DNA of 64,000 nucleotides from Candidatus Heimdallarchaeota archaeon (GCA_016840095.1 JAEOSZ010000095.1:32001-96000), one strand, 5' to 3'. Shown: positions 5,153-55,681, numbered from the stretch's first letter. Numbers and translations: made by a program. The notes: a model not told the origin generated them from the letters alone.

Positions 5153-7723
5153 ATGTCTTCTGAACACGATATAGCTATAATTTCTGTGGGATACAGGAAC
5201 AGTCCTTTCACAGAAGAAATCCTAAAAACTGACATAATTCCCTATTCCATTATAGCTAACAACTCAAGTGATTTTCAAATTCATCACGCTGATCCCTCTA
5301 AAATTCTCTTCTATAGCCTTGAATTTACTAAGATAATTGAAACTATAGCTAAGAAGAGTATGGATTCATTAGCTGTTTTTGAAACACTAGGACAATTTTT
5401 TGAGTTTTACAATCCTTTACATCTTTCAACTCTTAACTACTTAATTTCAAAATATGCTACTAGTATAAAACCTGAAAACAAAGATTACATGCAAGCATGG
5501 AAAAATATCTCGGAAGCAATTTTTGAAGAAGAATTCATCTATCCATTATTTCAAGAAAGCAGAATCTTACACATTAAAGAAGGGGAAGTGGAAATTCCAG
5601 TTCGACAATTCCTGATGTCTTCAGAAATTGAGAAGAAGAAAGATAGTTCAAAGAATAACAACAAGGCTTTGAATCAAGTTCTTGAAGAAATTACTGGGAT
5701 TATAGATCTTGAAGAAGCTAGTAAGATGAAACTTTGCACTATTGCTATGAAGAAGATTACATCAGCTTCTGCTGTAGTGATAGTTCCCACAGACATTGTT
5801 TCTTTATTTATCCTTTTCAGTTCCAATCATTTTAAAGAAACTTTACAGAAAACTAATGGTGAGATTGCTATTATATCTCCTTTCTGGCCTGGTAATGAGT
5901 TAAATCAAGTTGAGAAAACTATACTTCAAAAAACAGAATTTGAGGCTAATCTTACCAACCTAGTAAAATTGGTAAAAGATTGTGTGGATGCTGTTATTAT
6001 TGATACTAAGAATAGTGATTTAGTTCCAACACTTAGAGAGGAAGGAATTACAGTTTTAGTAGAGGAACTTACACCCGAGAACCAAGCAACTCAAGAATTC
6101 TTAGAAACTGTATTAAAAAGCATAGACATTTCATTAGATTCTATAGCTGTAGAACCTCAAGGTTTGATTGAAGGTTTAGGAGAAAAACTTGTTAATTTGT
6201 TCAGAGTTCGAGAACCTAAACAAGAAAAAGAAGTAAAGGAAGAAAGTACAGTTCAAACACTTGAAATGTCAGTTAGTGAAGAAGATAAGGAACTTATCGA
6301 ATCCATTTTTGAAGAAGATATAGAAGTAGAGGAGCCTAAGGTTGAAACAGAAGTATCAAAAACTTCAAAGGAAGAGGAAACACTTACAGATGAGTTTGAA
6401 ATGGAAGTAATTGATACTGAAGATACCATTCAAACAATACCAGTTCCACCACCCAAAAATGGAATAACTGAAACCGATTTCTATTATCCAAAAGCTGATG
6501 GTCAATTTGCTTTACCTGGAATAGAACAAATAACTCAATTTGAGCTAGAGGAATTGGAATCCTTAGATGTGGACGAACACATAATAAATTCATTTATTGA
6601 AAGAGCAATGACTAGTAATGCAACTGGATTAGAAGTTGTTTTCTCTGATTTATTGTCTTTACAGAATAATCCTTTATTGATAGAGAAAATTTACCAAATG
6701 ATACTGAAGAGATTAATAAAAATTCGTGAGTTTAATCCTGAAGTTAAAATTGCAGATATGGTAACCTATCTTTCAGCTCATAAACCTGAATTTTACCATG
6801 AAAAACTAGAAGAATTACTAGAAGAAACACTTCATTCTGAAGAAGATAAATCATTCAATCAAAACCTAAAAACTTCAACACTTGTTGTTAAGAGCTCTTT
6901 GCTCATTGCTAGAGAAATAATTGAAAATTTCTTAAGGAAAAATATCACTAATGAAGACATCTATATTGAAGATAGATTAAAACGAATGATTAGTACCTTT
7001 GGAGGTTCTAATATTGATTTGTTACATCTTCTTTGTAGAATTCTTGTTAACATTTATGAAATTGAATTAGAAAAAGAAGAACCGAATGTAAGTGTAATCC
7101 AAAAGATTATTTCTTTCCTTACTTTATTTGATGGACTTAGTGTTTCAATGACACTTGTTACGTTAGGATCAGATACCGTATTAGAATCCATTTCGAATGC
7201 AATAAATGAAATGGTTTTGAACAATTCATTTAAGAAAATAATAACTGATGTTTTGACTGTTTTCAACGAAGGAACTTATGAAGATTTGGTTAAAGCTTTT
7301 CATGGAAGAAAATTACCAGAAAATCTTGAATTTGAAATGATGAAAAGAAAATATATCTCAAGTCTGTCCAAGGTTGGATCTATACCATTAGACTTGTTTG
7401 CAGAAAGAATTGGTATGTCTGTTGATAATGCTGAAAAACTCATCTATGACATGATTTTGAAGGAGGAAATTCCTGCTAGAATTGAATTAGTTAGTGGAAG
7501 ACTCTATATCGTTCAAGAACATGAAGAAGTAGAAGTTGTTATGGAAGAAGCAACAGAAGAAGAATCCATAGAGATTATTGAAAACCAAAAAGAAATCCAA
7601 GAAGAGCCAGATAAACCTGAAGTAGAAGAAGTTTTAGAAGACTTTGTTTGTACTCAATGTCAAAGGTCCTTTAAGACAGAAAGAGGACTGAAGATGCACA
7701 CTACTAAGGCTCATAAGGAATAG
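5153..7723 (+). CDS. Fusion of a degenerate CofD/YvcK-like domain, acidic linker, helical repeats, PCI-like winged helix and C2H2 zinc finger
   Basis: N-terminal IAIISVG..YSIIANNSSD..IYPL..AVVIVPTD..IAIISPF..VDAVIID follows the CofD pattern. SIPLDLFAERIGMSVDNAEKLIYDMILKEEIPARIELVSGRLYI is PCI-like. CTQCQRSFKTERGLKMHTTKAH is a C2H2 finger. Confidence 0.75.
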   Translation: MSSEHDIAIISVGYRNSPFTEEILKTDIIPYSIIANNSSDFQIHHADPSKILFYSLEFTKIIETIAKKSMDSLAVFETLGQFFEFYNPLHLSTLNYLISKYATSIKPENKDYMQAWKNISEAIFEEEFIYPLFQESRILHIKEGEVEIPVRQFLMSSEIEKKKDSSKNNNKALNQVLEEITGIIDLEEASKMKLCTIAMKKITSASAVVIVPTDIVSLFILFSSNHFKETLQKTNGEIAIISPFWPGNELNQVEKTILQKTEFEANLTNLVKLVKDCVDAVIIDTKNSDLVPTLREEGITVLVEELTPENQATQEFLETVLKSIDISLDSIAVEPQGLIEGLGEKLVNLFRVREPKQEKEVKEESTVQTLEMSVSEEDKELIESIFEEDIEVEEPKVETEVSKTSKEEETLTDEFEMEVIDTEDTIQTIPVPPPKNGITETDFYYPKADGQFALPGIEQITQFELEELESLDVDEHIINSFIERAMTSNATGLEVVFSDLLSLQNNPLLIEKIYQMILKRLIKIREFNPEVKIADMVTYLSAHKPEFYHEKLEELLEETLHSEEDKSFNQNLKTSTLVVKSSLLIAREIIENFLRKNITNEDIYIEDRLKRMISTFGGSNIDLLHLLCRILVNIYEIELEKEEPNVSVIQKIISFLTLFDGLSVSMTLVTLGSDTVLESISNAINEMVLNNSFKKIITDVLTVFNEGTYEDLVKAFHGRKLPENLEFEMMKRKYISSLSKVGSIPLDLFAERIGMSVDNAEKLIYDMILKEEIPARIELVSGRLYIVQEHEEVEVVMEEATEEESIEIIENQKEIQEEPDKPEVEEVLEDFVCTQCQRSFKTERGLKMHTTKAHKE

Positions 7724-7784
7724 TATTTCCTAGACTAACGCATTTTTAAGATAGACTTTTTTATCTGTAAAAATTTAGTTATTT

Positions 7785-8321
7785 ATGAGGAAATTTCAGA
7801 TTGCAGTAGTTGGTTCAGGGACAATTCCAGACAATTCTGAAGAATATCAATTGGCAAAAAATCTTGGTAAATGTTTAGCTGATAATGATTTCATAATTCT
7901 ATGTGGAGGATTAGGAGGGGCTATGAAAGCTGTTTGTGAAGGAGTAAAGGAATCTGAGCATTATGTTTATGGGCAGACGATAGGTATCCTTCCTGAGCTA
8001 GACAAATCTACTTCAAATGCTTTTGTTGATGTCCAAATAGCTACAGGTATGTCTAAGGCTAGAAACCAGATAATTATTGCTTCTGCTGATGCTGTAATAG
8101 CAATAAGTGGAGGTGCAGGTACATTATCCGAGCTCTCTTTTGCTTGGCAGTTGAAAAAGAAGATACTGGTTTTGGAAAATTCAGGAGGATGGTCTGAAAA
8201 GCTAGCAAATTCAAGAATAGATAATAGTAGAGATGACAAAATCATTGCAGTTTCTTCTGTGGATGAAGTGATAGATATTCTTGAGAAGATACTTGTCCTT
8301 AATGATATCAATAGACTTTAA
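7785..8321 (+). CDS. TIGR00725/LOG-family Rossmann-fold nucleotide-binding protein
   Basis: CGGLGGAMKAV, TGMSKARN and GGAGTLSEL motifs. Confidence 0.88.
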   Translation: MRKFQIAVVGSGTIPDNSEEYQLAKNLGKCLADNDFIILCGGLGGAMKAVCEGVKESEHYVYGQTIGILPELDKSTSNAFVDVQIATGMSKARNQIIIASADAVIAISGGAGTLSELSFAWQLKKKILVLENSGGWSEKLANSRIDNSRDDKIIAVSSVDEVIDILEKILVLNDINRL

Positions 8322-8329
8322 AGACTTGT

Positions 8330-9346
8330 GTGAGAATTGAGTTTATGCTTGTTTGCTTGTTCAGGTTAGAGGATGTAGGACCCAACTTAGTTGAAATGGT
8401 TCTAGACAAAAATGTTGAATTTGATCAAGATACAATTGATAAATTTACGTTCTCAGGAACTGTTACATACTCACTCGTTTTCCAAGGGATGGTGACATTA
8501 GATGATATGTCCTCAGAACTTTATGGGCCTTTTCCATTTGCTTTCTCTTCAGGTTTTGTTCAATATGCTTTTTCTTTTATTGCTGGGGATAAAACAATGA
8601 AGGATAAAAGGATGAAAGAAAAAACCTTTGGCTTGATAATAATGCTTGTACCAGAAATGGTATCTAAAATTGATGCATTCAGAGAAGAACTGGCAAAAGT
8701 TCTATTATATAAGTTTCACAAGGTTTACAAAATTAGTCAAGTTGATACAGCTTTTCTCAAAGACATAATCAATTCTTATAATGAAATCTTAAAGGACCTT
8801 CTAAGTTTTAAGCAAGCAGATTTATTATCTGAACAAATACTGGAATTTTTACAAGCAAAGAAGAAACCAGCAAAGAAACAACCAATAACAAAAATCGGTG
8901 TGATTTATCCTACGGAATTCACTAGTTTCATCAAAAATTACTATGCATCTTTGTTAGGTTCCTTACCTTATACTGAAACATCCTATTCTGAGGATATAGC
9001 AATTATTAGAACTGCAACACATGAGTTCAATTTCATGAATTATTTGAATGCAGATGAGAAATATGTGAATACACAGAGCGCATTGATTCTTCTAGCAGAT
9101 GTTAGAGGTAGGAAATATAATCCACTCTTTGAAATAATAGAAGGTCTAAAATCAAGACCAAAAATTGCAACTGTTGTTTCTCTTTACGAGGATATCGAAA
9201 AAGCTAGCACTGAATATGCTAAATTCTTTACAGGGCTACAAAGATATATTGGTGATCTTCCATTCTTTTCAGCGAGTTTTAATACAAATTATGAGTTTAA
9301 GACCAAAATGCTGGAAGCACTATTTTGGACATTATCCCCTGAATAA
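8330..9346 (+). CDS. Hypothetical: longin/uDENN-like N-domain plus degenerate GTPase-like C-domain; probable paralog of 33612..34676
   Basis: Shares LYGPFP / D-x-R / hydrophobic-strand pattern with 33612. The C-half has small-GTPase-like strand-helix order with no P-loop. Confidence 0.5.
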   Translation: MRIEFMLVCLFRLEDVGPNLVEMVLDKNVEFDQDTIDKFTFSGTVTYSLVFQGMVTLDDMSSELYGPFPFAFSSGFVQYAFSFIAGDKTMKDKRMKEKTFGLIIMLVPEMVSKIDAFREELAKVLLYKFHKVYKISQVDTAFLKDIINSYNEILKDLLSFKQADLLSEQILEFLQAKKKPAKKQPITKIGVIYPTEFTSFIKNYYASLLGSLPYTETSYSEDIAIIRTATHEFNFMNYLNADEKYVNTQSALILLADVRGRKYNPLFEIIEGLKSRPKIATVVSLYEDIEKASTEYAKFFTGLQRYIGDLPFFSASFNTNYEFKTKMLEALFWTLSPE

Positions 9347-9351
9347 AACAT

Positions 9352-10476
9352 TCATATTACCAATTTTTTGATTGATTTTTGCTTGATTATTTCTTCTTTT
9401 ATTTCTACACCCAATCCTGGTCCATTGCGAGGAAGAGAGAGAGTTCCATCAGAATTTAACTCAAAAATTGGTTCTATAATATAGTCTGTATAATATCTGG
9501 CACTTTCACTTATATCATTAGGAAGAGTAAAAGAACTTAAACAAGAAACTGCGACATTTTTTGCTCTACCTATTCCAGTCTCTAGCATCCCACCACACCA
9601 CAGTGGGATTTCTGTATCTAATGCTAGTTCATGGATTTTAAGAGTTTCAGAAATACCTCCAACACGAGCAGGTTTAACATTAATTATCCTTGTAGCATCT
9701 AGTTCTATGGCAACTCGTGCGTCATCAACGCTTTTAATCGATTCATCCAAACATATAGGGGTGGAGATTTTCTTTTGTAATTTAGCATGGTCAATAATAT
9801 CATAGTATTGAAGTGGTTGTTCTATCATCATTAAATCAAAACGATCCATTTTGACAAAGATATCTGCATCTTTGATTCTGTATGCTGAATTTGCATCAAC
9901 CATTAATTTAATTTCAGGAAAATGATCTCTTACTTGTTTGAGCACGTTATTATCCATTCCTGGTTCAATTTTTAGTTTTATTCTTTGATACTTCTTATCA
10001 AGTGCTTCTTCTATTTTTTTGACAAGAGTTGTAGTGTCATCTTGAATACCCAATGATATTCCAGCTGGAATTTTGATCTTTTCTCCTCCAATAAGTTCAC
10101 TGATTGACTTATTGGTTAATTTTCCATACAAATCCCATAATGCATCTTCTACACAAGCTTTTGACATTTGGTTACCTCGAATAGGTTTAACTAAGTTAGG
10201 AAACTCATTAGGATGCTCTAAATCAGTTTTCATCAACCAAGGACCAATATAATTTGTGATCAAATGTACACTAGAGTTTATTGTCTCTCCTGAATACCAT
10301 GGACCTTCACGTGCTACACACTCTCCCCATCCAGTTTTATCACCTGTTTTCAAACTAACTAGCAAAATAGTTGCATCTTGTTCAACACCAAAACTTGTTC
10401 GAAATGGATTCCTCAACTGCATCCTTGTTAAAAACAGATTAATACTATCGATCTTCATTGTTTCAAATCGACTCAT
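9352..10476 (-). CDS. menC: o-succinylbenzoate synthase / N-succinylamino acid racemase (NSAR/OSBS, enolase superfamily)
   Basis: PFRTSFG, KLK, MVDANSAY, IEQP, CLDES, INVK, WCGGMLE and DIS motifs. Confidence 0.9.
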   Translation of the reverse strand: MSRFETMKIDSINLFLTRMQLRNPFRTSFGVEQDATILLVSLKTGDKTGWGECVAREGPWYSGETINSSVHLITNYIGPWLMKTDLEHPNEFPNLVKPIRGNQMSKACVEDALWDLYGKLTNKSISELIGGEKIKIPAGISLGIQDDTTTLVKKIEEALDKKYQRIKLKIEPGMDNNVLKQVRDHFPEIKLMVDANSAYRIKDADIFVKMDRFDLMMIEQPLQYYDIIDHAKLQKKISTPICLDESIKSVDDARVAIELDATRIINVKPARVGGISETLKIHELALDTEIPLWCGGMLETGIGRAKNVAVSCLSSFTLPNDISESARYYTDYIIEPIFELNSDGTLSLPRNGPGLGVEIKEEIIKQKSIKKLVI

Positions 10477-48104: not shown

Positions 48105-49307
48105 ATGTCTGGTTTTGATTTCGTTGAAGAAGCAATGTTCGGAAAGTCTATTTTCAAAAATGAATCAACTCTCTATCCTGAATATGTTCCACCAGAACTA
48201 CCTAGACGAGAAGAGGAGATACAAAGACTCGCTAGAAATTTTAGGTCTTTATTGGGTGCAGAAGGGTCTTTTTCAGTCAATGTAGCTATAGTAGGGAACG
48301 CAGGAATTGGAAAGACTAATTTATGCAAGTATACTATGAAAAGGTTTGAAACTACAGCTAATTCCAGAAACATAAATGTAAAGTTTCTATATTATAATTG
48401 CCACTCATTTAGGAGTAAAACAGCTATATTAAGAAATATTTTGTCAGAACATTTTCATATCCAATCTCGTGGATTCAGTGATGAGGAAATTCTTGATATG
48501 TTGGTTAAAAGACTATCAAGAGAGGACATCAGATTGATAATTGCTCTTGATGAAGCAAATATGTTAAATTCAGAAGATATCTTGAGTATTTTTCATGCAG
48601 GAGAATATTTTGGCTCAGAACAAAGTATGATTTCAACGATAATTATATCAAGGCCTACTGAATGGAAGTCTCTTCTTAATGTTCCATTATCAGGTCATAT
48701 ACATGATCAAATGGATATCTCAGGTTACTCAAGAGACCAACTATTAGAGATCCTTGAGTATCGAGCAAGCATGGCGCTCTATCCAACTTCTTACTCTGAA
48801 GAAACTCTAAATCTTATAGCTGATATATGTGCTTCATCACAAAATGCTAGACATGGGATTGAAATTCTCTACCGATCTGGAAAATTGGCTGACTTAAAAC
48901 AAGAAAATTTTATTGTTCCTGATTACATTAGAGCTGCAAAAGCAGATGTTTACCCTGAACTGAGAAGAGATGTTTTAGCTGAACTTAGAGATCATGAGTT
49001 ATTAGCAGCTTTAGGTGTTGCTAGAAAACTTTCATTGAAAGGAATAACATCAACTACTGTGGATGAAGGTTACGATAGCTATCTCATAACCTGTGAAGAA
49101 TATGGAGAAGAATCTCGCGGAAAATCAACCTTTCGATCTGCTATTGAAACATTGGATAAAGTTGGTGTAATTGGTAAAAGTGTTGGACCAATTGAAGAAG
49201 GTAAAAGAGGTAGAAGGGCAAAAATAACTACTTTTGATATACCTGCTACAGTTCTAGTAGAAAGAATTGAGAATATCTTATCAAAACCAAGAGATTCAAA
49301 GGAATAA
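48105..49307 (+). CDS. cdc6: Cdc6/Orc1 replication initiator
   Basis: L.PEYVP.ELP.RE, Walker A GNAGIGKT, Walker B LDEA, NAR sensor and C-terminal winged helix with GKRGR. Confidence 0.93.
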   Translation: MSGFDFVEEAMFGKSIFKNESTLYPEYVPPELPRREEEIQRLARNFRSLLGAEGSFSVNVAIVGNAGIGKTNLCKYTMKRFETTANSRNINVKFLYYNCHSFRSKTAILRNILSEHFHIQSRGFSDEEILDMLVKRLSREDIRLIIALDEANMLNSEDILSIFHAGEYFGSEQSMISTIIISRPTEWKSLLNVPLSGHIHDQMDISGYSRDQLLEILEYRASMALYPTSYSEETLNLIADICASSQNARHGIEILYRSGKLADLKQENFIVPDYIRAAKADVYPELRRDVLAELRDHELLAALGVARKLSLKGITSTTVDEGYDSYLITCEEYGEESRGKSTFRSAIETLDKVGVIGKSVGPIEEGKRGRRAKITTFDIPATVLVERIENILSKPRDSKE

Positions 49308-49310
49308 AGT

Positions 49311-49544
49311 TTAGTTAACACAGATCATAGTCATAGAATTCTTTACTCCTTCTACGATTATGTTATTGTTCAAAACTTGATTTTTTAGTTCATCCATTGT
49401 ATCAAATTCAATCTTAACTATTAAATCATATATGCCATAGACTGCATAAACTTCTGTTACTTCGACCATATCTTTGAGTCCTTCCTGTACTTTCTCTAAC
49501 ATACCTGATTGGACGTTTAGAAGGATGTAAGCTGCTTGTGTCAT
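49311..49544 (-). CDS. Stand-alone Lrp/AsnC ligand-binding (RAM) domain (MTQAAYIL start preferred)
   Basis: AYILL..V.EVYAVYGIYDLIVKI motif. Confidence 0.85.
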   Translation of the reverse strand: MTQAAYILLNVQSGMLEKVQEGLKDMVEVTEVYAVYGIYDLIVKIEFDTMDELKNQVLNNNIIVEGVKNSMTMICVN

Positions 49545-49639
49545 TTTTATGGTATACTCCTTTTGAACTGTTAGTTGCGAATGCATTTAAAAAAACTAAC
49601 ATACAGACATACCAATAAAAAAAAAGAAAAAAAGGTGAA

Positions 49640-50920
49640 TTATTGTTGTTGAATCTTTAATCTCACTTTACATGCTGGGCAGGTTCCATTTCCTACTACC
49701 CACTGGTAAAGATGATTTTTGTGAAATGCTATATCGCATGAAGGACATCGTATAATATTCTCCTTGTTGGTTATTGTTTGCATACAAATTGAGCAAGCAA
49801 CTGTAACAGCTTCATTTGTAACTAAATCGTAATTTATATCAGTACTCTTAAAATTAATTTTGTATGAATGATTTGGAGAATACTCAACCTTGTTCCTATT
49901 TAGTTCGAATTCTGATGAATTTCTAGCTCTTTTGCGTTTATAAGCCTTAAATACACTGAAAGATCCGATTATGTAGAGAATACATACAATTGTATAGATT
50001 AGTGGTTTAAAATTAAATGGTGGAGAATAGATATACGTATACTCTTCTTCAATTGTCCATAAAAATGGCCAGTGTGAATGGTGATAATCGATAGGGATTT
50101 GATAGATGTCTTTTGAGCCAATATTAAGAAAAACTCTAGCAATATTTTCTGTTTGTATGTGATCATAATACATCCGAATCTGAATTTCATTTTCTAAATC
50201 ATAACCTGAAAAGTTGAAGTTTATTTCATACCATTCACCTTCGTATACTCCTTCATCAACATACATTTCTAATTCAGAAACATCGCTTACTGCAAAATTA
50301 TCCAACATAGTTTCAACAGTATCTTGATTGGAATCTACAAGGTTAACTGTGTAATTGTCAGGATCTAAATATCTACTATTTAATATGAAGCAGAGTTTGT
50401 TAATGCTGTAATAGTATTCATAGAATCTTTCAACGCTGAAATAGTATTGTTGTTCCAATTGTATGTTGAGTGAATAAGACCAAAGTGGATATATATCCAA
50501 AGTTGTTAAATCAAAGACACATTCCTCTATGTATAGTGAGCTTGTTCTAATTCTTACTATTCCATTGATAGCTTCAATACTAGTAAAATGATGAGTTGTA
50601 GTATCTCCATGATTTATTAACCAGCTATCATAGATTATGTCATCTGAGTCTCGTACTAGTTCAACCATTAAGCCATTGTATGGGCCTTGAAGAGTGTTTC
50701 CCCAAGATGATACAGTAATATTAAACTCAAAAATCTCTCCTTCGATATGTAAGAAGTATTCACTCTTGTTCATTTCTGAACTTACTTGTAATTTGTATGT
50801 CTTATCCACGGCTTCAACAAAGAATTCATTATTAGAATTCAATCCTTTTACTAAATATAGGGATGTAAATATTATTGAAAAGCAAACAAAAAAAAGAATA
50901 AGAGTCTTTGATTTTCCCAT
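49640..50920 (-). CDS. Single-pass membrane protein with ectodomain and cytoplasmic RING finger (putative E3 ligase); ATG 50920 preferred
   Basis: AGGTGA RBS, signal helix, beta-rich ectodomain, TM followed by KRKR, then CSIC..CPSC..FHKNHL.QW...CPAC. Confidence 0.8.
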   Translation of the reverse strand: MGKSKTLILFFVCFSIIFTSLYLVKGLNSNNEFFVEAVDKTYKLQVSSEMNKSEYFLHIEGEIFEFNITVSSWGNTLQGPYNGLMVELVRDSDDIIYDSWLINHGDTTTHHFTSIEAINGIVRIRTSSLYIEECVFDLTTLDIYPLWSYSLNIQLEQQYYFSVERFYEYYYSINKLCFILNSRYLDPDNYTVNLVDSNQDTVETMLDNFAVSDVSELEMYVDEGVYEGEWYEINFNFSGYDLENEIQIRMYYDHIQTENIARVFLNIGSKDIYQIPIDYHHSHWPFLWTIEEEYTYIYSPPFNFKPLIYTIVCILYIIGSFSVFKAYKRKRARNSSEFELNRNKVEYSPNHSYKINFKSTDINYDLVTNEAVTVACSICMQTITNKENIIRCPSCDIAFHKNHLYQWVVGNGTCPACKVRLKIQQQ

Positions 50921-50924
50921 CAAA

Positions 50925-53012
50925 TCACCTCTTTTTCTGTTTATAAAACCCAAGTAAAGCTGCTAATCCAAGAACTGCTATAGCTACTGGCCATGATAAA
51001 CCCTCAGTTTGATAATAGTGTTCATATGGTGTATATTCCGATTCATAAGTAAACCCTACTTCAATCTGTCCAGTATGGTAGTCAGCAACAACTAGCATTA
51101 AGTATTCCTCTTCAGCCAATTCAACAGAGGCATATTTCTTGGATAGGTATTCCAAAGACGATGCGTTGAAAACATAGATTCCAGTTTGAACTTCTTTAGA
51201 ATCAGCATAAAATTGACGATTTTCTTCATCTTGGAATCGATTATCTATTCTGTATAGATATACATCATTATAATCTATCGCTACAGTGAAAGTTTCCTTG
51301 AATTCTACAGTTTCTGGGATAACATTGGCAATGATCACACTTACACATCCTGAAGCGATAAGCGATACTTTTACAGTATGTTCAGCTGGAACAATTAATG
51401 AATCAACTTGAGAATCAATTTTATTTATTAAAATCGTTGAACTATCTATATCTGCTGCCATTATATCGTAGAAGTCATGGCTATCGCTAAATATAATTCC
51501 ATAAGAATCATCATTTGAAGCACCTGTTAGGCGCAATATCACTTGTTGATTTGGCATAAGAGTTATCTCTTTTTTACTAGAAACAGGTATGATGGAATAT
51601 TCATAACTGCTAGAAAGATCTACTATTTGTTCTTCTGAAAAAATTTCGTTTCCAATCCAATCCTTTGTATATATTTTATAGTATAGGTTTTGATCTTGAT
51701 AGTCGTATGCTAGTGATAAACAGTAAGAATCATTGAATAAAGATGTTGCATTTGAAATGGTCCAAAATGGAGTATTATCAAATTTGTAATATATTTCTAC
51801 AAATGGTATGCCAGTTACATCCTTTACCTCACTCATAATGGTGACAAATTTTTCATCGGTTAGAAAGTCTTCACTGAAGTAAATCCAAGTATCAATTTCA
51901 GGAGGAATCTCATCTAGAAGAACTACAAATTCTCTCGCAAAAAATTCTCTGACTCCTGGGTCAATTTCATAAGTTAGATTTGCTATGATTTTGAAATCTA
52001 ATTCAATTGAATACAGTACTATTAACTCTCCAATTAAGTCTGGAATATCTTCAGTTTGAGGATATTCAGTTCCAATTTCGATGTATGTACCACCAGTTAT
52101 ATCAGCTCCTGGTATTAATTCTCCTCTAGTAATCTCTTGAGCTGTACTAGATCCACCACTTGCCATTATAGGACAGAGAATAAAATTTTCTGCTGCATAC
52201 TGTCCATATAATTCTATAAGATCACTATTGAATCTTATTAATGATCCACTATTATTTGGTTCATCAGTAATTACAATAACTAACTTAACTGCATTTAATC
52301 TCCACTCAAGATAGTTCTTAGCACAATACAAAGCATCACCCCAGGGCTCTTGACCACCTGAAGTTCCTCTATTAGAAAGGACATCGACAATAACTGAAAT
52401 ATCTGAAGTTAGATGAGTAATCAAACTATTTGATATCAATGGATTATACAAAGGATCTCCTCCAAAGAGTATCAATCCAACACGAAGGTCAGGAACTTCA
52501 GCTTTAATCTCATCAACAACATTGATTAGCTCCTCTATTAGAGCGTCTATCTCATCGTTCATCGATCCAGATTGATCAAGAACAATAGCAAGATCAAGAG
52601 CTTCAGAAGCTGTTCCTCCCTCTGTTACTGTTACAATTGTTTTTTCATCAGTTATCCATGATTCTCCAGCTGCCAATGAATCCTTTGAAAATAAAGTTGG
52701 ATCCAGAACTGCACCATAGCCATTTGTTTCTGTAGAAACCTCCAATAAATTCATTTCTTGATCTGAAATGTTTGTGATATTGAAGCTAGCAGAGAAAGAA
52801 TCACCAGGTCGTACACTTGGAATGTTATCCTCTCTTTGAGAAGGCAAGTTAGTTATCATTTCAATTGAAATGTTATCTGTTGCACTTGTTATATTAGTCT
52901 CTAAAGGACTTGTTTCATTTAAAAAAAACTCAGTTTTAGAATGTGCTTGAATGCTAGGAAGAATCATAGCAACCAGCACAAAAGTCAAAATAATCTTTCC
53001 TTTTATTTTCAT
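50925..53012 (-). CDS. Surface-anchored vWA-domain protein (ATG 53012 preferred)
   Basis: Signal peptide, MIDAS DQSGSM, EPWGDAL, ITDEP, TGG, Ig-like domains and C-terminal TM with KQKKR. Confidence 0.88.
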   Translation of the reverse strand: MKIKGKIILTFVLVAMILPSIQAHSKTEFFLNETSPLETNITSATDNISIEMITNLPSQREDNIPSVRPGDSFSASFNITNISDQEMNLLEVSTETNGYGAVLDPTLFSKDSLAAGESWITDEKTIVTVTEGGTASEALDLAIVLDQSGSMNDEIDALIEELINVVDEIKAEVPDLRVGLILFGGDPLYNPLISNSLITHLTSDISVIVDVLSNRGTSGGQEPWGDALYCAKNYLEWRLNAVKLVIVITDEPNNSGSLIRFNSDLIELYGQYAAENFILCPIMASGGSSTAQEITRGELIPGADITGGTYIEIGTEYPQTEDIPDLIGELIVLYSIELDFKIIANLTYEIDPGVREFFAREFVVLLDEIPPEIDTWIYFSEDFLTDEKFVTIMSEVKDVTGIPFVEIYYKFDNTPFWTISNATSLFNDSYCLSLAYDYQDQNLYYKIYTKDWIGNEIFSEEQIVDLSSSYEYSIIPVSSKKEITLMPNQQVILRLTGASNDDSYGIIFSDSHDFYDIMAADIDSSTILINKIDSQVDSLIVPAEHTVKVSLIASGCVSVIIANVIPETVEFKETFTVAIDYNDVYLYRIDNRFQDEENRQFYADSKEVQTGIYVFNASSLEYLSKKYASVELAEEEYLMLVVADYHTGQIEVGFTYESEYTPYEHYYQTEGLSWPVAIAVLGLAALLGFYKQKKR

Positions 53013-53147
53013 TTGTATCAATATATCATTATTCTGAGATATTAATAAATGTTTCTCATGTGGCTGTTTTTGCCTTTCTAATTCACCCTTATAAAGAGAT
53101 ATCAAAATTCCGATATGTTTATATAGTTCTTTTGTATTTTTTACTTA

Positions 53148-53540
53148 ATGTCAGAAAAACACTTCGAAAAAATGATTAGTTTACTTGAGGACATTAGTAG
53201 TAGGTTGAAGAGAATTGAAGACAAATTAGGTGATGAAGTAGCAGTTCAATCTGGTGTTTCTGCTTTAGATATACTCTCTAAATCTGCTCTTGATTCTGGT
53301 ATTAAGATAAACAAATCACACATCAAAACCTATTTCACTGTTCAAAAGATTGGTAAAGCTACTTGTAAAGAAGTCGCAGAAGTTACAGGTAGAGCTTTCA
53401 ATCTAGAATCTAGATATCTTGTAGCATTATTTAATGAAGGATTTTTAGATAGAGAAAGAGTCCCAATTCAAAAACCAAGTAAAGATAATCCTGCTGGTCG
53501 AGGTACTGAAGTAAGATATTTTGTTAAGGAGAGGAAATAA
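53148..53540 (+). CDS. Coiled-coil plus winged-HTH DNA-binding protein
   Basis: LEDISSRLKRIEDKL; KATCKEVAEVTGRAFNLESRYLVALFNEGFL. Confidence 0.8.
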   Translation: MSEKHFEKMISLLEDISSRLKRIEDKLGDEVAVQSGVSALDILSKSALDSGIKINKSHIKTYFTVQKIGKATCKEVAEVTGRAFNLESRYLVALFNEGFLDRERVPIQKPSKDNPAGRGTEVRYFVKERK

Positions 53541-54305
53541 ATGAAAACAATTAGTGTACATAGTTATAAAGGTGGAACTGGTAAAACAACCTTTCTACTC
53601 AATATTGCTGGGTTACTTGCTAAGGAAGGAGCTAAGACTATTGCAGTTGATTATGATCTGAGAGCTCCATCTTTTCAATCCTATTTCAAAGTGGAAAATC
53701 CATTATATTTGTCAGATTATCTTCTAGAAGGTGCTTCTGAATCTGAAATTATCTTTCCTTGCATAGCAAGTAATGGTATTAAATTGGATCTAATATTCTC
53801 TTCGATGGAATTTCTCAAACAACATTCACAACAAAGGGACAAATTATCAAGAGATGATTCAAAATATCTAACTAAGCTATTTCAATTGCAAAGTAATTTA
53901 TCTGAAAAATATGATTATATGTTACTAGATACGATTCCTGGTTTCTTTTACCGTTCGATTGATTCAATGATGGTTTCGGATATCATAATTGTAATTGCTA
54001 CACCCAGTGTTTCGAATATTTTGGGATTGAATGAGTTAACAGATAATATCTATGCTATGTTGAAAGAAGACACAAAGATGATTTTATTGATTAATAAGAT
54101 AGATGAAGAAGGAATTGAAGCAGATAAGGAACTTTTTGAAAAAAGTTTATCAACGCTTAAGAGAATAGGTAAAGAAAAATTCTCTTCTGTGCTTGAAATA
54201 CCATATTTAAACATTTTGAGCGAAAGAATATACGCATTTGAAGATGAAATTCCAGAAGAGTTTATGAAAGCAATAAAAGAAATAATGAATCTAATGAAAG
54301 GGTAA
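53541..54305 (+). CDS. ParA/MinD-family ATPase
   Basis: Deviant Walker A KGGTGKTT, DYDLRAP, LDTIPG and INK. Confidence 0.92.
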   Translation: MKTISVHSYKGGTGKTTFLLNIAGLLAKEGAKTIAVDYDLRAPSFQSYFKVENPLYLSDYLLEGASESEIIFPCIASNGIKLDLIFSSMEFLKQHSQQRDKLSRDDSKYLTKLFQLQSNLSEKYDYMLLDTIPGFFYRSIDSMMVSDIIIVIATPSVSNILGLNELTDNIYAMLKEDTKMILLINKIDEEGIEADKELFEKSLSTLKRIGKEKFSSVLEIPYLNILSERIYAFEDEIPEEFMKAIKEIMNLMKG

Positions 54306-54307
54306 AA

Positions 54308-55681
54308 ATGGCTGAAAGTAAAAAAGCAATTGGAAATGGAGAGCTAGAAAAAATACGCGATTATCTTCAAGATTCAAAGAAAAACATAGACCGATTAAAA
54401 AAAGGTAAGAAACCTAGAAGAAAATTGCGTTTCGTAATTGCTGAACACAAATTTGCTTTTACATTGCTTTCTCTCATGCTGATGACAACTCCTTTCATTC
54501 CCTTAATGCTTCCAGGAGAACCTCCACCGATTTATCAACCTCCAAACTATGAATCTGTTGAACTAACTGTAGGTCTAATTGATTCCAATTTTACAGACCA
54601 AGATGGTTATCCAGTCTACGAAAAAACAGAAGCAAATACTTCTTCTGAGCTAATAATATTGTCTTCTTTGACAAATTCTATGCTTTTACAAGCAGGATAT
54701 TTACCTGAAAATGAGGAAATATACAGCAAGATTTCACTGATTCAGGACATTCTTATTAATAGAACTTTTAGAGACGTTGAAAATCTTGATGAAAACCTAA
54801 CTATCACCGAACAAATTATTGGATTGTATACTTTAGTTCAAGCTTACTTTTCTCTACAGGGAACTAACCATTCTTTTAGCTCCTCTATTATTGGTGCTGC
54901 TTATGCTACTTTGATTAACAATTATTTTGATTACAATGAAAAATTACTCTTTCAACCTACTACTAACAGTAGTTATTTTATTGATCAAGCACTAGTTGTT
55001 TGGTTATTAACAACTTATCAGTTAGTGTTTGATGAGGATTATATTTATCATACTGTTTATCCTGCTGATTATTATGTTGATTATCTTCTTGACTCAATTT
55101 TTCTCAATTTCGTAAATTATACAAACAACATTTTTTACAGTGAATATAATGTTACTTCAGGTGAAAAAGCTGTTGTAGCTAATTCTTTGGATCTTTCGTT
55201 CCTATCTGTTGGATTATCTAGAATTGAGAAACTACGACATTATTATTTCTATTATAGTAGTTATTATGTCCATCAAAAGGTAGTAAATGATTTTATTGAT
55301 GAAAACTGGATTGTTCATGAAACGTACAAGAGCGATGATATTCGAGTATTAAAGAATCAAGCATATTTTGCTCTAAGTTCATATCTGATGAGTTTGAACA
55401 CTCTCGGATCTGAACTAGTAAACTCTACAAAGCTGAATTATCTGGCTGGAGATGGATTTTATCAAGATTTAACTGATTATAAAATAACTGCTGAATCATG
55501 TTTATATGGACTATTAATTTTCGCAAGTAATGAATGGTCAAAGATACAGATTGAAAGAGAATATAGAGATGATATACCAACAGAATATACTTATCCTTCA
55601 CTGTTTTGGAGTCTTCTAGCAACTCTTTTCCTTGCAATAGTGGTGCATAGAAAAACAAAGAAGAGAAAAAATTCATGGTGA
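54308..55681 (+). CDS. Membrane-anchored protein with helical ectodomain (N- and C-terminal TMs)
   Basis: Basic N-terminus, TM, (alpha/alpha)-like Tyr-rich domain, C-terminal TM and RKTKKRK tail. Confidence 0.65.
   Translation: MAESKKAIGNGELEKIRDYLQDSKKNIDRLKKGKKPRRKLRFVIAEHKFAFTLLSLMLMTTPFIPLMLPGEPPPIYQPPNYESVELTVGLIDSNFTDQDGYPVYEKTEANTSSELIILSSLTNSMLLQAGYLPENEEIYSKISLIQDILINRTFRDVENLDENLTITEQIIGLYTLVQAYFSLQGTNHSFSSSIIGAAYATLINNYFDYNEKLLFQPTTNSSYFIDQALVVWLLTTYQLVFDEDYIYHTVYPADYYVDYLLDSIFLNFVNYTNNIFYSEYNVTSGEKAVVANSLDLSFLSVGLSRIEKLRHYYFYYSSYYVHQKVVNDFIDENWIVHETYKSDDIRVLKNQAYFALSSYLMSLNTLGSELVNSTKLNYLAGDGFYQDLTDYKITAESCLYGLLIFASNEWSKIQIEREYRDDIPTEYTYPSLFWSLLATLFLAIVVHRKTKKRKNSW

Follow-up and report, generated by a model that had tools for sequence, protein, structure and literature searches.

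The genome of a Candidatus Heimdallarchaeota archaeon encodes, within a stretch of 64,000 nt (GCA_016840095.1 JAEOSZ010000095.1:32001-96000; referred to here as the window), a pair of genes that lie head to tail on the minus strand (C95:81640-85012 on the contig). Gene 1 encodes a surface protein with a von Willebrand factor type A (vWA) domain, and gene 2 encodes a receptor-shaped protein that carries a RING finger on the cytoplasmic side of its membrane helix. By their predicted topology, both products are single-pass type-I membrane proteins. The features of the pair are as follows, with coordinates given as positions in the whole window, residues numbered within each protein, and the metal-ion-dependent adhesion site of the vWA domain abbreviated as MIDAS.

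53012..50925, minus strand: gene 1, anchored vWA protein of 695 aa (open reading frame [ORF], Pfam VWA match, AlphaFold2 [AF2] model)
52005..52598, minus strand: vWA domain, residues 139-336, with MIDAS residues D146, S148, S150 and D250 (alignment of 23 sequences; model)
50943..51008, minus strand: C-terminal transmembrane (TM) anchor of gene 1, residues 669-690, then a basic tail of 5 residues (hydropathy; helix 674-694 in the AF2 model)
50918..50930, minus strand: coupling junction, a Shine-Dalgarno-like AGGTGA with the gene 1 stop inside it, then TTTG and the gene 2 ATG (sequence; kept in approximately 20 species loci)
50920..49640, minus strand: gene 2, type-I membrane RING protein of 426 aa (ORF, homologs, AF2 model)
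50111..50815, minus strand: gene 2 ectodomain, residues 36-270, two beta-sandwich/jelly-roll domains (all-beta by DSSP; predicted local distance difference test [pLDDT] approximately 80)
49943..50011, minus strand: gene 2 TM helix, residues 304-326, with the basic cluster KAYKRKRAR on its C-terminal side (hydropathy; helix 305-331 in the model)
49670..49795, minus strand: RING finger, C376 to C417 (Pfam zf-RING_2, profile matches in the Protein Data Bank [PDB], invariant ligands)
49617..49633, minus strand: oligo-T run TTTTTTTCTTTTTTTTT, beginning 6 nt past the gene 2 stop (sequence)

Gene 1 runs from an ATG at 53012 to a TGA at 50927-50925, and gene 2 from an ATG at 50920-50918 to a TAA at 49642-49640. 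The junction reads AAAAAG-AGGTGA-TTTG-ATG on the minus strand, so that the stop codon of gene 1 falls within the ribosome-binding sequence of gene 2 (AGGTGA, 50930-50925) and is separated from the next ATG by a spacer of 4 nt (50924-50921). Across approximately 20 species loci, a stop-to-start distance of 4 nt is the rule, and the few exceptions have -4, -1, +1 or +7 nt. Because a TGA near the ATG recurs in all these loci, the placement of the stop within the Shine-Dalgarno-like sequence is not due to chance. Judged from this junction, the two genes are one translationally coupled operon. A TTG at 53105 offers an alternative start for gene 1 that would add 31 residues; we took the ATG at 53012 as the start because the open frame upstream of it varies in length among orthologs, with approximately 9 codons in the closest genome. 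The T-run after gene 2, TTTTTTTCTTTTTTTTT, is likely an archaeal terminator by its usual look, and therefore the transcription unit probably holds just gene 1 and gene 2.

We found that this pairing is conserved. Among 31 species genomes of Heimdallarchaeaceae, the family of the source genome, 22 contain both genes adjacent on the same strand with the vWA gene first. Neither gene is present in six, of which four belong to genus g1 and the remaining two make up genus g2 in this set (95 and 89% complete); in one further genome a contig end truncates the RING gene. A single closed genome (G007) has lost the vWA gene, and its RING gene begins without a signal peptide; an HD-domain gene and a gene that by eye is transposase-like lie in and near the gap (L061, G007:C1:1196000-1212000, approximately 6385-10300). 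We read the RING gene of this genome as a decaying remnant left after a deletion. Two further RING orthologs are irregular, one matching in two frames (G005; L062, G005:C2, 6842-8030; residues 41-178 and 216-423) and the other carrying an in-frame TAA (G026; L043), and these may be pseudogenes or assembly errors.

Database searches returned a family of the same narrow range. Gene 1 has 33 full-length orthologs, and the named ones are all Heimdallarchaeota or Heimdallarchaeaceae records; gene 2 has 21 homologs, the named ones all being Heimdall-group or Asgard records. The gene 2 ectodomain alone, searched against 1.84 billion representative proteins, gave only 18 clusters, most of them similar in length, and the three distant full-length members that were inspected have the same build as gene 2. 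The most distant relatives of gene 2 (25-27% identity) have the end of a vWA-protein gene directly upstream. A wider distribution was considered and discarded, as only the RING finds matches beyond the family, in proteins of other architecture; one of these (L057) has a TM helix at its N-terminus, then a cytoplasmic domain of helical build and a RING.

The two proteins could be independent of each other, and their adjacency mere synteny inherited within one family. The whole neighbourhood (Cdc6, a ligand-binding-domain gene of the Lrp/AsnC type and AMP phosphorylase) is indeed syntenic in most of the genomes, which are close kin. The cases that inform on the pairing are those in which this background is broken: the pair persists in one locus where the downstream synteny is lost (L065) and in another where five genes are inserted upstream (L029), and both genes are absent together in six genomes, while the sole deletion of the vWA gene comes with a truncated RING gene. 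Furthermore, the 4-nt coupling is kept even where the proteins have fallen to 27-35% identity. With these observations, we regard simple inherited synteny as very improbable.

The product of gene 1 begins with a signal peptide (a signal-like helix at residues 1-23 by hydropathy) and continues with a beta-sandwich, the vWA domain, three to four further beta-sandwiches, a TM helix and the tail KQKKR. Pfam places the vWA domain at residues 140-257 with 35.5 bits against a cut-off of 23.8 (PF00092). In the AF2 model, which has a mean pLDDT of 81, the first beta-sandwich spans residues 48-128, the alpha/beta vWA domain 139-336 and the C-terminal beta-sandwiches 339-656, followed by the TM helix. 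In Foldseek it matches best to PitA, a pilus tip adhesin, and to the alpha-I and beta-I domains of integrins, with template-modelling scores of 0.2-0.47 over the whole chain, the likeness being confined to the vWA fold. The modelled build is adhesin-like. Gene 1 resembles MIDAS adhesins of the integrin I-domain and Gram-positive pilus-tip kinds in that beta-sandwich stalk domains surround a vWA domain that has DxSxS and an Asp, and that one C-terminal TM helix with a short tail anchors the protein; in contrast to them, it has no beta-propeller or hybrid-domain insertion and no sortase motif. N-glycosylation sequons are kept at N78 in 23 of 23 orthologs and at N421 in 20 of 23, which fits with an extracellular location of the product.

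A preliminary description of the locus, made from the sequence, had placed the stop of the vWA gene inside the AGGTGA of the next gene, had read gene 1 as an anchored extracellular protein and had given gene 2 a signal, an ectodomain, a TM helix and a cytoplasmic RING. Coordinates, hydropathy, Pfam matches and the AF2 models agree with it on each of these points. Its further claim that the MIDAS of gene 1 is intact holds for the most part, though not completely. The DxSxS residues (D146, S148 and S150) and D250 are invariant in 23 orthologs. The position that we presume to be that of the canonical MIDAS Thr, placed by the vWA motif and not by a structural alignment, varies in the same orthologs (Q, H, T, N or I) and is followed by an invariant E222-P-W-G-D226.

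The C-terminal format of gene 1 is common in this genome, in which approximately 116 ORFs of at least 200 aa share a signal-like N-terminus, a C-terminal TM helix and a basic tail. We found no support for archaeosortase-type sorting of the vWA protein, as its C-terminus is without a PEF- or PGF-type motif and its tail is of this common format. Many of the approximately 116 ORFs (e.g., on contigs C95, C11, C45 and C145) do carry PEF- or PTxT-like motifs before the helix, and a single weak match to the exosortase/archaeosortase family occurs in the genome (C14:28435-29196); a C-terminal sorting system may operate in this organism.

Gene 2 has a hydrophobic N-terminus (residues 3-28 by hydropathy), and its AF2 model, with a mean pLDDT of 69, shows two all-beta domains (39-153 and 159-266, pLDDT approximately 80), a low-confidence stalk, the TM helix, a low-confidence linker of 45 residues and a RING of beta-beta-alpha form. 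An exhaustive structural comparison of domain 1 gave PirA (Z 11.0), the GOLD domain of p24 (Z 9.4-10.0), PPC/collagen-binding domains (Z 9.2) and the SID1 ectodomain (Z 8.8); domain 1 thus matches jelly-roll binding domains as a group, and no one family stands out. All 16 orthologs examined retain the sequon at N51. We rejected homology of the ectodomain to the beta-sandwich stalk of gene 1 (hhalign probability 7%), and likewise its match to a 2794-aa protein (P0063), which reflects a repeated short DYHHxxWP-like motif and no domain. Look-alikes of the ectodomain in the ESM Atlas all score below 0.85 and are leads only (PPC). Within the otherwise variable cytoplasmic linker, residues 345-365 (approximately 49826-49888) contain invariant Y347, P349, F357 and Y364 with a Y-S-P motif, which may be a strand that packs on the RING or a site of docking or modification.

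By sequence family, the zinc-binding domain of gene 2 is a RING-H2-type finger. Pfam zf-RING_2 (PF13639) matches residues 376-418 with 31.3 bits (cut-off 27.3, E 2.5e-7), and the same site scores 35.6 bits in a scan of the whole genome. The ligand pattern is C376-x2-C379-x12-C392-x2-C395-x4-H400-x2-H403-x3-W407-x6-C414-P-x-C417, and its eight ligands, invariant in 16 orthologs, would form the zinc cross-brace of a RING; the model itself carries no zinc. Aligned to Arkadia, the second half (F-H-x2-[H/C]-x3-W-x6-CPxC) is canonical RING-H2, while the usual H4 position is an Ile and the canonical C3-x(1-3)-H4-x(2-3)-H5 spacing is not followed. A reading of the domain as a PHD finger was rejected in view of the Pfam and PDB profile scores. 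The PHD profile (PF00628) reaches 13.3 bits, below its cut-off of 24, and ligand 6 is His, not Cys; Prok-RING_1 (PF14446) gives a partial match to residues 373-402 at 19.8 bits, below its cut-off of 29.1. In the PDB, the best matches to the single RING sequence are Arkadia, EL5, RNF165, RNF24, RLIM, RNF38, RMR1 and ZNRF3. With a profile of 15 orthologs, the first 29 matches are RING E3 ligases (Arkadia best, E 1.6e-10; RNF165, EL5, AMFR, RMR1, RNF38 and ZNRF3 are among the others), and the first PHD finger follows at E 6.7e-3.

The positions at which a RING contacts its E2 are conserved in gene 2 orthologs: the aliphatic residue after the first ligand is I378 (I or V, nearly invariant), the Trp after ligand 6 and the Pro before the eighth ligand are W407 and P415 (both invariant), and the Lys/Arg linchpin after the eighth ligand is K418 (K, R or N). 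In srfp, a RING E3 of Caldiarchaeum, the substitution I30Q abolished ubiquitylation, and W58A and R69A impaired it (PMC5654768). Matched by eye on motif positions, and not by an alignment to srfp, I378, W407 and K418 correspond to I30, W58 and R69, so that the Ile, Trp and Lys/Arg positions that matter for srfp activity are kept in gene 2. Both proteins are archaeal RING-H2-type fingers with an irregular C3/H4 region and an extra Cys, and both occur in genomes with a eukaryote-like ubiquitin, E1 and E2. In srfp, C3 and H4 lie two residues out of alignment, and the protein is experimentally active (PMC5654768). The two differ in that srfp is small, soluble and encoded inside a ubiquitin/E1/E2 operon, whereas gene 2 encodes a 426-aa type-I membrane protein with an ectodomain of 270 residues, away from the ubiquitin genes and coupled to a vWA gene. 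Among orthologs of gene 2 the mean pairwise identity is 76% for the RING, 36-41% for the ectodomain and 34% for the linker. The difference between RING and ectodomain points to something conserved that binds the RING.

We found the remaining parts of a ubiquitin system elsewhere in the genome (3.44 Mb in 165 contigs, 89% complete), as the preliminary description had expected of an Asgard archaeon. The genome has four UQ_con, two ubiquitin (on C118 and C159, one ending GG-L), three ThiF/E1 and 17 zf-RING_2 matches. A Cys follows the HPN or HAN motif in two of the four E2-like proteins (C159:20922-21395 and C49:101504-101875); the other two are without it and look UEV-like. These other two (C49:35114-35413 and C118:19779-20033) have HPN with no Cys after it and long coiled-coil tails, and they look like UEV/Vps23-type ubiquitin binders rather than E2s. 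At least five other RING proteins of the genome have the CPxC-x4-H-x2-[H/E]-x3-W variant, and the gene for one of them is flanked by an E2 gene on one side and a ubiquitin-E1 pair on the other (contig C159). Predicted TM segments are present in 12 of the 17 RING-bearing frames, counted from the first Met of each frame. The other membrane RING proteins likewise have a C-terminal RING of the same variant type; they differ from gene 2 in being N-terminally anchored or polytopic, with their bulk in the cytoplasm. Among the 17 frames, gene 2 is unique in two respects: its RING comes after a cleavable-looking signal, a large ectodomain and one TM helix, and its neighbour is a vWA gene. As far as the sequences tell, gene 2 is a real and new architectural variant among Asgard RING proteins, limited to one family. 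Three findings that would have told against the preliminary description did not materialize: by sequence the zinc domain resembles a RING and not a PHD finger and retains its E2-contact residues, the genome does encode ubiquitin, E1 and E2, and the gene pair is conserved, with joint losses.

Taken as a whole, we give about an even chance to the explanation that best fits these data, in which gene 2 encodes a membrane-tethered RING E3 that sits in or beside a surface complex with the vWA protein and acts on lysines at the inner face of the membrane. The two membrane proteins would assemble at the cell surface, presumably as a heterodimer. The vWA subunit would contribute an adhesin-like ectodomain whose ligand-binding site holds a metal ion, and hardly any cytoplasmic tail, and the RING subunit two beta-sandwich ectodomains and a RING-H2-type finger approximately 50 residues from the membrane. 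The RING would most likely recruit a ubiquitin-charged E2 to the inner membrane face. Candidate target lysines lie in the juxtamembrane KRKR of gene 2, in the KQKKR tail of the vWA protein and in the lysine-rich ends of a 457-aa membrane protein encoded next to the pair (see below). Once ubiquitinated at such sites, the surface complex could be destined for turnover or be passed to the ESCRT machinery of Asgard archaea, in which ESCRT-I and ESCRT-II are reported to bind ubiquitin (PMC9192718).

Several observations weigh against a tethered E3 of this kind. The tail of the vWA protein, with just 5-7 residues, offers little for ubiquitination, and the positive-inside rule suffices to account for its basic residues. 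In the RING, a C-x2-C knuckle supplies ligands 3 and 4, and four residues separate it from H5; this spacing is PHD-like and not the canonical C-x-H-x2-H, so that loop 2, which binds the E2, may be different. The model is of moderate confidence over the RING (pLDDT 61-82). The ubiquitin, E1 and E2 matches lie on contigs C159, C118, C49 and C14, and none is near the vWA-RING operon on C95. Finally, the pair is confined to one archaeal family, and most of the adjacency counts are not independent, since the genomes are close kin and syntenic.

The topology of gene 2 is that of the eukaryotic PA-TM-RING ligases (RNF43, ZNRF3, GRAIL/RNF128, RNF13 and plant RMR), which likewise have a signal peptide, an ectodomain, one TM helix and a cytoplasmic RING-H2, and the significant matches of the PDB search include ZNRF3 (E 1.2e-4), RMR1 (E 6.5e-6) and RNF13 (E 8e-4). 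Whereas the PA domain is alpha/beta, residues 39-266 of gene 2 are modelled all-beta without helices; no Pfam PA match was found in the ectodomain at E up to 1, and the fold matches are jelly rolls (PirA, GOLD and PPC) in a list without PA, although such a list cannot exclude a family. The gene 2 RING is no closer to these ligases than to Arkadia, EL5 and RNF38, its ligands 3 and 4 are spaced C-x2-C, and instead of Frizzled or R-spondin it has as partner a vWA protein encoded in its own operon. Of the comparison with RNF43, ZNRF3 and GRAIL that had been drawn earlier, it is the topology that stands, with no sign of a PA domain in the ectodomain and no special affinity of the RING to these ligases. 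The demonstrated likeness is one of topology, not of homology, and we do not place gene 2 in the RNF43/ZNRF3/GRAIL family.

This comparison bears on a stronger version of the tethered-E3 explanation, which was also the earlier reading of the locus: a ligand bound at the vWA MIDAS, or clustering upon contact with another cell or a surface, would switch on ubiquitination by the RING, a true parallel of the down-regulation or signalling by RNF43, ZNRF3 and GRAIL. The shared topology speaks for such a ligand-gated receptor, as do the adhesin/integrin-like fold of the vWA partner, the ubiquitin-binding ESCRT pathway of Asgard archaea (PMC9192718) and the pattern of divergence, in which the ectodomains change fast and the RING is nearly fixed, as for a sensor with a conserved output. 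Nothing in the sequence shows dependence on an extracellular ligand, however, and constitutive turnover fits the same data equally well; neither Pfam nor the fold comparison gave a sign of a PA domain. We consider a ligand-gated receptor unlikely on present evidence.

The pair is flanked upstream by a divergent operon with which it shares a promoter element. The features concerned are the following.

53148..55681, plus strand: divergent operon of three genes with products of 130 aa, 254 aa and 457 aa (Pfam and NCBIfam for the ATPase; phyletic pattern)
53023..53047, minus strand: 25-nt element, copy 2, 10 nt upstream of the gene 1 ATG (direct repeat; five species)
53099..53123, minus strand: 25-nt element, copy 1, TATAAACATATCGGAATTTTGATAT, proximal to the first gene of the divergent operon (direct repeat; five species)

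The first product of the divergent operon has no family match and appears by eye to be a winged-helix DNA binder (wHTH, winged helix-turn-helix), the second is a MinD/ParA-type ATPase by Pfam and NCBIfam, and the third is the 457-aa membrane protein, which carries one TM helix near either terminus. Within the family, the presence and absence of the 457-aa protein follow those of the pair, except for a broken remnant in one genome (G009) and no match in another (G008), and its gene is always on the same contig as the pair, within a few kb. The five-gene block is intact in L065 though everything downstream differs, and the closed genome that has lost the vWA gene has lost the wHTH-ParA-membrane operon along with it. 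The preliminary description had not noted that the pair is part of this larger co-inherited block. Look-alikes of the 457-aa protein in the ESM Atlas all score below 0.85 and are leads only (GH127-like). Membership of the five proteins in a defence system was discarded: PADLOC gave no defence-system match except weak ParA-type ones, and NCBIfam found nothing specific for the block.

The intergenic region between the two operons is 135 nt long and contains the two copies of the 25-nt element, each with a TATA-like box and ATATC-N8-GATAT. Both copies are conserved in five species. In one genome (G005), a Sir2-like gene, assigned by eye, is inserted between the copies, and each operon retains its own. 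The element is not a genome-wide regulon signal, as its core palindrome occurs 13 times against 14.7 expected; the sole other close match is beside a tRNA-like gene on contig C150. The element is likely a shared promoter and operator. The two operons would share their regulation, possibly through the wHTH protein, and would make up a functional five-gene unit, in which the obvious guess, by analogy to other MinD/ParA systems, is that the ATPase positions the membrane complex.

On the other side of the pair, beyond the T-run and approximately 50-130 nt downstream of the RING gene, lies a gene for a stand-alone Lrp/AsnC ligand-binding (RAM) domain (49311-49586, minus strand), which follows the RING gene in most syntenic genomes. 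It is adjoined by an Orc1/Cdc6 gene (48105-49307, plus strand), and therefore a replication origin may be close.

The divergent operon raises the question whether the RING is catalytic at all. It could instead be a zinc module that anchors the surface complex to a cytoplasmic partner, such as the MinD/ParA ATPase or the cytoskeleton, without ubiquitin. A positioning ATPase needs a membrane tether, and the pair is co-inherited and shares its promoter element with the wHTH/MinD-ParA/membrane-protein operon; the atypical spacing of the zinc ligands and the distance of the operon from the ubiquitin, E1 and E2 genes point the same way. What such an anchor leaves unexplained is that the invariant or nearly invariant set extends beyond the zinc ligands to the E2-contact residues I378, W407, P415 and the K/R after the eighth ligand. 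Moreover, the best solved relatives are all active E3s, and the same variant is found in the RING of the E2-RING-ubiquitin-E1 locus on C159. A non-catalytic role is therefore doubtful in our view, and the tethered E3, with its activity and substrates as predicted above, remains the explanation we favour.

All of these elements could be joined into a receptor-type ubiquitin ligase, in which a MIDAS adhesin and a beta-sandwich/TM/RING subunit form a heterodimer that is placed in the membrane by the MinD/ParA ATPase and its DNA-binding partner, senses contact with a partner cell or a surface, ubiquitinates its own tails and hands the complex to ESCRT. We hold this full scheme to be rather improbable.

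RING E3s and complete ubiquitin systems are known in Asgard archaea; their targets are not. A receptor-shaped RING protein that is translationally coupled to one surface protein offers a candidate substrate or partner for an Asgard E3, and in the literature on Asgard membrane or receptor-like RING ligases and on Asgard vWA or integrin-like proteins we found no description of such a pair. The pair is a possible archaeal case of ubiquitin at the cell surface, the step that eukaryotes use in receptor down-regulation and ESCRT sorting, and it suggests that surface proteins may have been linked to ubiquitin tagging before eukaryotes. Since the family is small and sharply bounded within one archaeal family, it is a lineage-specific invention and not the ancestor of the eukaryotic PA-TM-RING ligases; its value is that of a tractable model of how such coupling arises, and not of a proof of ancestry. 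If the receptor-type reading were true, ligand-controlled, ubiquitin-dependent down-regulation of surface proteins, a hallmark of the eukaryotic endomembrane system, would be present in the archaeal lineage closest to eukaryotes.

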